Positions 47,601 through 50,600 of a stretch of 55,663 bases of DNA are shown here, one piece after another (the first letter of the stretch is position 1; each line of letters begins with the position of its first letter). Made by a program: the position numbers. The stretch spans positions 1-55,663 of IMG/VR virus record IMGVR_UViG_2713896798_000010; one strand, given 5' to 3'. This DNA comes from a virus. Its lineage: Duplodnaviria > Heunggongvirae > Uroviricota > Caudoviricetes.

Positions 47601-50600
47601 GGAGGATAGCGAGATGGGAAAAGAGAATAGCATATGCATTAGAAAACGGTATAACACCTGGATTTAATGCTATAGATGACGGTCCGGAATATAAGATTAA
47701 TGAAGACCCAATGAACAAAGTTGACAAAGCATTAGCAACACCATTTCCTCGAGATGTTGAAAAAATTAAAGATGAAAAATATGAGGATATAATGCACAGA
47801 GTTGTTAACCACGCACACCAACGAAATCCAAATAAAAAATGGTCATAACCCACTTCGATAGATTTTATTGTTTGGACTAACAAAAATTACTACCGCAAGC
47901 CACGCAGTGAAACGGGTGTGACTTGTGTTGGTCGCCAGAAAATGAAATTAGGCAGCAAACCACTTATTTGAGGTGAGATATGACAAAATCATGGAGCGTA
48001 CCTTTTCCTGAATCAGAAACTGAACATGATGGAATGCCTGTTTTCTGGAGATTCCAGGCGACAGTTGAAGAAGATGGGATAAAAATATTCGCACTTCAAT
48101 ATATAGCTTTTCATCAGACAGAGCATTATGCATGGTTGGTTCCTGCGCATTGGATTGTTAATTTTAAACCAGCACCAAATCAGTGGTTACAGGAATGGAA
48201 ACAAAGGAGAAATAGATATGCAATTAAGAAAGTAGCAAAAAATGCAGAAAGATCTTTTGCATTCCCAACGAAGAAACTTGCCATTGAAAGTTTATTGCGC
48301 CGGAAGAAATACCATTTAATGAGAATCAAACAAGATTTGGCTGTTGTATCAACTCTTGTTGATGGTATGAAGAATATTGATACATCAACACCAGATATTG
48401 AATATAACTTTGGACACAACCAAGAAACAGAAAATTGGGTATTTTATTAGTACGAATAAGCACTGTGTATTCATTCCAACGAGTGAATACACGGAGCAAT
48501 GTCGCTCGTAACTAAACAGGAGCCGACTTGTTCTGATTATTGGAAATCTTCTTTGCCCTCCAGTGTGAGGGCAATTTTTTTGACGGAGGATATATGAAAT
48601 TACGTGTCTGGCATATCCCGCAAGTACCTATGAAGCCGTTCATTGTAGAAGTGGCAAGTGTTGAAGAGGGTGTTCGTCTGATGGACGCACTGGCTGATTA
48701 TGACGCCTTTCAGTATGACAACAACATCAAGCCTGATTACTGCAATGCTAACGGCCTTGAGATGTGGGATGAGAGCCTTACCGATGAAGATTTATCAGAG
48801 ATGGGGCTTACTGATCGCTGGGTGGATTGGTACAGCGAATGCCAATGTTACGACGACCCACGTAAATATCTCGAAAGCCTGAAAGAAGAAACATCAGCCG
48901 CCTAAGCGCGGCTTTACCGCATACCAATAACGCTTCACTCGAGGCGTTTTTCGTTATGTATAAATAAGGAGCACACCATGCAATATGCCATTGCAGGGTG
49001 GCCTGTTGCTGGCTGCCCTTCCGAATCTTTACTTGAACGAATTACCCGTAAATTACGTGACGGATGGAAACGCCTTATCGACATACTTAATCAGCCAGGA
49101 GTCCCGAAAAATGGATCAAACACTTATGGCTATCCAGACTAAATTCACTATCGCCACTTTTATTGGCGATGAAAAGATGTTTCGTGAAGCCGTCGACGCT
49201 TATAAAAAATGGATATTAATGCTGAAACTGAGATCAAGCAAAAGCATTCACTAACCCCATTTCCTGTTTTCCTAATCAGCCTGGCATTTCGCGGGCGATA
49301 TTTTCACAGCCATTTTCAGGAGTTCAGCCATGAACGCTTATTACATTCAGGATCGTCTTGAGGCTCAGAGCTGGGCGCGTCACTACCAGCAGATCGCCCG
49401 TGAAGAGAAAGAGGCAGAACTGGCAGACGACATGGAAAAAGGCCTGCCCCAGCACCTGTTTGAATCGCTATGCATCGATCATTTGCAACGCCACGGGGCC
49501 AGCAAAAAAGCCATTACCCGTGCGTTTGATGACGATGTTGAGTTTCAGGAGCGCATGGCAGAACACATCCGGTACATGGTTGAAACCATTGCTCACCATC
49601 AGGTTGATATTGATTCAGAGGTATAAAACGGATGAGTACAGCACTCGCAACGCTGGCTGGGAAGCTGGCTGAACGTGTCGGCATGGATTCTGTCGACCCA
49701 CAGGAACTGATCACCACTCTTCGCCAGACGGCATTTAAAGGCGATGCCAGCGATGCGCAGTTCATCGCATTGTTGATCGTCGCCAACCAGTACGGCCTTA
49801 ATCCGTGGACGAAAGAAATTTACGCCTTCCCTGACAAGCAGAACGGCATCGTTCCGGTGGTGGGCGTTGATGGCTGGTCCCGTATCATCAATGAAAACCA
49901 GCAGTTTGATGGCATGGACTTTGAGCAGGACAATGAATCCTGTACATGCCGGATTTACCGCAAGGACCGTAATCATCCGATCTGCGTTACCGAATGGATG
50001 GATGAATGCCGCCGCGAACCATTCAAAACCCGCGAAGGCAGAGAAATCACCGGGCCGTGGCAGTCGCATCCCAAACGGATGTTACGGCATAAAGCCATGA
50101 TTCAGTGTGCCCGTCTGGCCTTCGGATTTGCTGGTATCTATGACAATGATGAAGCCGAGCGCATTGTCGAAAATACTGCATACACTGCAGAACGTCAGCC
50201 AGAACGCGACATCACTCCGGTTAACGATGAAACCATGCAGGAGATTAACACTCTGCTGATCGCCCTGGATAAAACATGGGATGACGACTTATTGCCGCTC
50301 TGTTCCCAGATATTTCGCCGCGACATTCGCGCATCGTCAGAACTGACACAGGCCGAAGCAGTGAAAGCTCTTGGATTCCTGAAACAAAAAGCCTCTGAAC
50401 AGAAGGTGGCTGCATGACACCGGACATTATCCTGCAGCGTACCGGGATCGACGTGAGAGCTGTCGAACAGGGGGATGATGCGTGGCACAAATTACGGCTC
50501 GGCGTCATCACCGCTTCAGAAGTTCACAACGTGATAGCAAAGCCCCGCTCAGGAAAGAAGTGGCCTGACATGAAAATGTCCTACTTCCACACCCTGCTGG

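Follow-up and report, generated by a model that had tools for sequence, protein, structure and literature searches.

The stretch of DNA analysed here (the window) comprises positions 1 to 55,663 of the IMG/VR virus record IMGVR_UViG_2713896798_000010 and represents a lambdoid Shiga-toxin (Stx) phage of the PA28-like type. We examined the interval 47980-48905, which extends exactly from the start codon of one open reading frame (ORF), ORF156, to the stop codon of a second, ORF103. Both lie in the N-dependent leftward early (pL) operon, in the slot between the N-like antiterminator gene and cIII. Sequence comparison identified ORF103 as the ortholog of gene 17 of phage P22, and ORF156 as the gene known as gp45 in phage HK97 and as L0079 in phage 933W. 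The two genes and the elements immediately around them are as follows.

47918-47979, plus strand: leader of the ORF156 cassette, including the Shine-Dalgarno sequence GAGGTGA; homology to 933W and HK97 starts abruptly at 47918
47980-48450, plus strand: ORF156, encoding a basic protein of 156 amino acids (aa); phrog_1636; HK97 gp45 and 933W L0079 by similarity
48460-48497, no strand assigned: imperfect inverted repeat of 17 nt whose 9-bp core stem is perfect (GTGTATTCA/TGAATACAC), intergenic, just past the ORF156 stop codon
48553-48581, plus strand: intrinsic-terminator-like hairpin with an 8-bp stem, followed by a T7 tract, between ORF156 and ORF103
48594-48905, plus strand: ORF103, encoding an acidic 103-aa protein predicted to be cytoplasmic; P22 gene 17 ortholog; PF17420, phrog_1510
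48896-48955, plus strand: two terminator-like hairpins after ORF103, the first (AGCCGC..GCGGCT) at 48896-48913 and the second at 48929-48948, followed by a T-run

Both ORFs are initiated by ATG and are preceded by strong Shine-Dalgarno sequences (GAGGTGA before ORF156 and GGAGGA before ORF103), as had been stated in an earlier note made from the sequence alone. A longer frame starting with TTG at 48540 was rejected as the ORF103 gene, and the ATG at 48594 was taken as its start. Between ORF103 and P22 gene 17, dS was 0.55 and dN was 0.069 (dN/dS 0.125). When ORF156 was compared with two homologs of 83% and 63% amino acid identity, synonymous sites were saturated (pS 0.82-0.90) and pN was 0.10-0.24. 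Since both ORFs are, in addition, annotated as coding sequences in many phage GenBank and RefSeq E. coli records, ORF156 and ORF103 are real genes under strong purifying selection and not chance ORFs.

The two proteins differ in composition. The description of the 103-aa protein as strongly acidic and Trp-rich was borne out by a pI of 4.14, 23 Asp and Glu against 9 Lys and Arg residues, a net charge of -14 and 4 Trp among 103 residues. ORF156 has a pI of 9.07 and 7 Trp. However, its basic part is not the C-terminal half, as the earlier note had it, but a central segment (residues 66-125, pI 11.1), followed by an acidic tail formed by the last 31 residues (pI 4.05). Low GC content, claimed for both genes, applied clearly only to ORF156 (35.7%), whereas ORF103 (46.8%) lies closer to the window (51.2%).

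ORF103 matched the Pfam family PF17420 (GP17, "Superinfection exclusion gene product 17") with an E-value of 7.3e-56 and 186.8 bits against a cutoff of 25, its residues 1-98 aligning to profile positions 1-98 of 98, and matched phrog_1510 with an E-value of 5.7e-58. By tblastn, it shared 88.3% identity with the P22 gene 17 product (X15637, NC_002371) over 103 of 103 aa. The likeness extends to length, which is equal, and to gene order in the pL operon, where c3/cIII comes next and a terminator lies in between; the hairpin at 48896-48913 corresponds to the terminator with which gene 17 ends in the P22 annotation. The two settings differ in that P22 is a Salmonella phage and the window an E. coli Stx phage, and in that P22 carries ral-orf78-orf87 upstream, where the window has ORF156. 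Gene 17 is a named gene of 1989 vintage with a Pfam family, so that ORF103 was already catalogued. No meaningful match was found for ORF103 in a sequence search of PDB, and scans of the PADLOC defence models and of NCBIfam gave none. The earlier note had called the two genes unknown and their families unrecognised. Neither statement stands for ORF103, whereas both hold for ORF156 insofar as it has no known function and no Pfam or NCBIfam family, although it falls into a PHROG.

Both temperate and virulent phages carry homologs of gp17, and their hosts range from Escherichia, Salmonella, Klebsiella and Serratia to Bacillus. Among the strictly virulent carriers are Kuttervirus, Bacillus phage SBSphiC and N4, in which the gene (gp18) neighbours the early RNA polymerase genes. 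N4 gp18 and the "gp17-like" proteins of Kuttervirus and Vi01-like phages share 54-65% identity with ORF103 and are likewise encoded by early or accessory genes, but their carriers are obligately virulent, and in some copies the C-terminal quarter is missing (76% coverage).

The note on gene 17 in the P22 RefSeq record reads "allows growth on phage Fels2 lysogen", and the secondary literature states that the gene is required to counteract Fels-2 exclusion (PMC6486243; PMC9409062). Because both the record and the literature summaries describe growth on a Fels-2 lysogen, the database name "superinfection exclusion protein" inverts the function, and the evidence says that the gp17 family is a counter-exclusion, that is anti-defence, factor. 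The opposite interpretation takes the name at face value: ORF103 would protect the lysogen or the infected cell from other phages. RefSeq, Pfam and PHROG all use this product name, but it conflicts with the P22 record's own note and with the literature summaries. Strict superinfection exclusion proteins (SieA, SieB, HK97 gp15-like) are expressed from the prophage and are typically membrane-associated. ORF103, however, is preceded by a terminator and belongs to the pL operon, which the repressor controls, and a promoter scan found no promoter-like site upstream of it. Direct reading of its sequence found no signal peptide, hydrophobic segment or membrane segment, and obligately lytic phages, N4 and Kuttervirus among them, commonly carry members of its family. 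These same properties agree with a counter-defence role, and we consider it extremely improbable that ORF103 is a superinfection exclusion protein.

A second alternative concerns the mechanism of the counter-defence role. The earlier note had proposed ORF103 as a DNA-mimic style anti-defence candidate, in which the acidic surface would titrate a DNA-binding defence enzyme in the manner of Ocr, ArdA or Gam. The anti-defence part of this guess was supported by the 88% identity to P22 gene 17, whereas the DNA-mimic part has conserved acidity as its sole basis. The acidity is indeed strong and family-wide, with pI values of 4.05-4.35 and net charges of -8 to -17 among 45 members, and in this respect ORF103 matches known DNA mimics (Ocr, ArdA and Gam-like proteins). 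The gene also occupies the slot of ral in lambda and P22, near gam, and its family is present in many virulent phages. However, ORF103 resembled no known DNA mimic in structure or sequence and showed no conserved carboxylate surface array.

The structure prediction and fold search that the earlier note had recommended were informative for one of the two proteins. An AlphaFold2 model of ORF103, built from a 45-sequence alignment, was confident (pLDDT 92.6, pTM 0.80) and showed a compact beta-beta-alpha-beta-alpha-beta-alpha arrangement, while ORF156 was modelled poorly. The ORF103 model bore no resemblance to any known anti-defence protein, and a Foldseek search of BFVD returned only members of its own family. 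CdiI-type immunity proteins and the ERH (enhancer of rudimentary homolog) fold count among the nearest known systems. The invariant positions of gp17 are mostly aromatic or polar (P9, Q10, L33, Y36, D37, F39, Q40, K46, D48, Y49, N51, W76 and W79), and its most acidic loop (approximately residues 63-68) is missing in many members. For these two reasons, we infer that gp17 acts as an inhibitor that binds a protein, not as a DNA mimic of the classical kind, and we regard the DNA-mimic explanation as quite unlikely.

In P2, old and tin occupy a hotspot flanked by portal gene Q and replication gene A. P2-like defence hotspots have been described by Rousset et al. 2022 (PMC9122126). We examined the Fels-2 genome (NC_010463), in which the interval between Q and A (22639-25335, minus strand) contains two genes, STM2723.1 and STM2726, both annotated as hypothetical. 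STM2723.1 (565 aa), next to portal gene Q, matched the PADLOC model AbiU (E-value 2.7e-112) and the Pfam family AIPR (E-value 8.8e-43). As candidates for the determinant of Fels-2 exclusion, which P22 gene 17 overcomes, both genes come into question, and the AIPR/AbiU protein STM2723.1 suggests itself as a concrete candidate for the exclusion function that is countered.

ORF156 was 100% identical to 933W L0079 and 99.4% identical to HK97 gp45, and it matched phrog_1636, a family of unknown function, over positions 1-156 of 156 (E-value 2.7e-112). It is present in 87 phage records, mostly of Stx phages, and is always labelled "hypothetical". No match was found in Pfam, NCBIfam, PDB or PADLOC, a lone Cas1_II match (E-value 0.018) being noise, and a literature search found no paper on L0079, HK97 gp45, the protein accessions or phrog_1636. 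In HK97 and 933W the gene directly follows N and is followed by the same terminator as here, whereas in the window a Nun homolog is inserted between. By these comparisons, ORF156 is a conserved known unknown of classic phages and does not represent a new family.

Close homologs of ORF156 (55-85% identity) were found in Pectobacterium, Cronobacter, Rosenbergiella, Brenneria and metagenomes. An exhaustive HMMER search widened the family to proteins of ~135-155 aa with 24-36% identity, to which neither Pfam nor PHROG attaches a function; three long multi-stretch matches (P0163, P0165 and P0167) were discarded as repetitive or low-complexity artefacts. The only near-invariant positions of the wider family are G33, T47, K87 and A101, and the family shares the motif K..K.a.R(s/r)FAf.tK..A..sL..RK..ql. 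All members are basic (pI 7.65-9.92). Where the genomic context was retrieved, the homologs lie in leftward early operons of temperate phages, past the repressor and N-like gene and ahead of the recombination genes, or just upstream of xis-int. The structure model of ORF156 was poor, and it predates the deeper family alignment obtained from the exhaustive search.

Our best guess, held with low confidence, is that ORF156 is a nucleic-acid-binding early accessory or host-takeover protein. A more specific proposal is that it contains a nucleic-acid-binding or nuclease domain of a degenerate GIY-YIG-like or AP2-like type. A family-profile search of PDB gave only matches with E-values of 0.04-0.17, among them a weak match to 1zg2 (UPF0213; profile positions 34-106, E-value 0.17) that aligns "RxFAFPtKeeA", and the predicted topology of a beta-sheet followed by a helix would fit. 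However, a significant profile match together with the conserved catalytic Tyr/Arg/Glu set was not found for ORF156, and we consider such a domain very unlikely. 

It may also be asked whether ORF156 serves in counter-defence or host takeover, for instance as an inhibitor or as a decoy that binds nucleic acids, and is not a regulator or housekeeping early protein. The gene forms a self-contained cassette of Shine-Dalgarno sequence, gene and terminator that is exchanged among HK97, 933W and PA28-like phages at 99% identity, it has a low GC content, and in different genera it is found among the accessory genes of leftward early operons. Since it is absent from lambda and P22, it is dispensable for the core life cycle. 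On the other side stand the empty PADLOC, Pfam, NCBIfam and PDB searches and the silence of the literature under its accessions and PHROG identifier, and its basic character equally fits a DNA- or RNA-binding regulator. An anti-defence role, resting on gene position and cassette behaviour, is thus possible for ORF156, but we judge a counter-defence or host-takeover function over a regulatory or housekeeping one to be rather doubtful.

The cassette structure of the region was established by blastn of the window against 933W, HK97 and P22. The first cassette (47918-48580), consisting of the leader, ORF156 and the hairpin-T7 terminator, shares 99.1-99.7% identity with 933W and HK97, and its terminator (48553-48581) is the "putative terminator" annotated after HK97 gp45. 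The second cassette (48494-48915), consisting of the terminator segment and gene 17, shares 82.9% DNA identity with P22 (438 bp including flanks). The two overlap in the terminator segment 48494-48580, the hairpin-T7 terminator being common to both, and this overlap could plausibly be a joint formed by recombination. Homology to 933W resumes at 48897, and that phage has Ea10/ssb in the slot of gene 17; in HK97, gp45 runs directly to cIII. Because the two mosaic cassettes are separate and have different relatives, the sequence evidence indicates that ORF156 and ORF103 are independent, horizontally exchanged cassettes and do not form a functional pair. Furthermore, hhalign found no relationship between the ORF103 and ORF156 families, and the gp17 family was unrelated to 933W Ea10/ssb (probability 0.3%).

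The known occupants of the N-to-cIII slot include ral and sieB of lambda and P22 and Ea10/ssb of lambda, which share the operon slot with ORF156 and ORF103. PHROG, Pfam and NCBIfam scans found no ral or sieB family for ORF156 or ORF103, and a SieB-type membrane segment occurs in neither. Ral is an anti-restriction function, and its presence therefore marks the slot as enriched in accessory genes for phage-versus-host and phage-versus-phage interactions.

On the plus strand, the genes of the region are arranged in the order N-like, Nun homolog, ORF156, ORF103, cIII, kil, gam, bet and exo. This confirmed the earlier placement of the two genes in an accessory pL slot before cIII-kil-gam, but the Nun homolog between the N-like gene and ORF156 had not been mentioned. 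The neighbouring features are listed below.

45788-46495, plus strand: cI-like repressor gene
~47052-47090, plus strand: nutL-like element in the pL/nutL region, with a boxA-like sequence GCTCTTTAA followed by a boxB-like hairpin, CTCAAC-CTAACC-GTTGAG (direct sequence reading)
47203-47541, plus strand: N-like antiterminator gene (phrog_271, E-value 5e-30), upstream boundary
47510-47848, plus strand: Nun homolog gene with a 112-aa product (phrog_5632, E-value 7e-69; 92.9% identity to HK022 Nun), upstream boundary
48965-49023, plus strand: cIII thermoregulator RNA element (Rfam RF01804, 88.5 bits, E-value 1.4e-21), overlapping the cIII start
48978-49142, plus strand: cIII gene (PF02061, E-value 1.5e-30), downstream boundary

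The segment 46900-49300 shared 99.7-99.8% identity with the Stx1a phage EH2115, phage PA28 and phage 06-3462 (Traversvirus), and several E. coli chromosomes contain prophages in which the 1051 bp spanning both genes recur with 100% identity. With these 1051 bp as a query, 88 of the 5426 complete E. coli genomes had a place covering at least 80% of it, and 2262 had a match to some part. The Rfam scan found no RNA family inside 47980-48905, its sole match being the cIII thermoregulator just downstream. The inverted repeat at 48460-48497 has no T-run and no Rfam match.

The Nun of HK022 is a lambda-excluding transcription terminator. In HK022, Nun replaces N, whereas the Stx phage studied here carries the N-like gene and the Nun homolog in tandem, the start of the latter overlapping the end of the former by 32 nt. 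The Nun homolog is labelled "hypothetical" in most records. In addition, a small ORF on the minus strand (~46648-46869) lies between the cI-like repressor gene and pL; related records annotate it as a hypothetical protein of 69-73 aa (WP_024174011.1). In 933W, stk and L0081 fill the region between cI and N.

Taken as a whole, the account that we favour is that of two exchanged pL cassettes, with ORF103 as an anti-exclusion factor and ORF156 as a basic early protein, and we consider it reasonably probable. The promoter scan found no sigma-70-like promoter on the plus strand in the ORF156 leader (47918-47979). Under the favoured account, ORF156 and ORF103 would be transcribed only in lytic growth, when N-antiterminated RNA polymerase would read through the flanking hairpin terminators. 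ORF103 would then let the infecting phage grow in cells that carry a P2-like prophage such as Fels-2, if the phenotype transfers from P22. It may act stoichiometrically, by binding and neutralising an abortive-infection protein encoded by the prophage, for which the AbiU/AIPR-family protein in the Fels-2 old/tin defence hotspot would be the most concrete target candidate.

Several observations weigh against this account. The Fels-2 phenotype is known for P22 gene 17 alone, through a database note and secondary citations, and not for the present ortholog or for E. coli. A literature search found no paper defining the Fels-2 exclusion determinant, and STM2726 (243 aa), the second gene of the Fels-2 hotspot, matched no family. 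Furthermore, the exact Fels-2 AIPR gene, annotated as "AIPR family protein", was present at the DNA level in just 7 of the 5426 complete E. coli genomes. Because the exact gene is so rare there, the target of gp17 in E. coli may be a diverged AIPR relative or something else.

A more far-reaching version would make the gp17 family a dedicated inhibitor of the AbiU/AIPR proteins in P2-like old/tin hotspots, with a novel anti-defence fold. It would also make the HK97 gp45 family a second, mechanistically new counter-defence or host-takeover factor, and the N-to-cIII slot of Stx phages a two-gene anti-defence locus. We consider this combined version unlikely.

The region is largely ordinary and already catalogued, and the result is an annotation correction rather than a discovery: a known P22 gene is carried under a misleading database name, although the evidence says that exclusion is counteracted. 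A literature search found no paper defining the mechanism of gp17, although the family is widespread; the AbiU/AIPR gene of Fels-2 provides a directly testable candidate for its target. HK97 gp45/933W L0079 is a long-standing hypothetical gene of tractable model phages and an easy knockout target. Both genes bear on the spread of Stx phages through E. coli populations rich in P2-like prophages.

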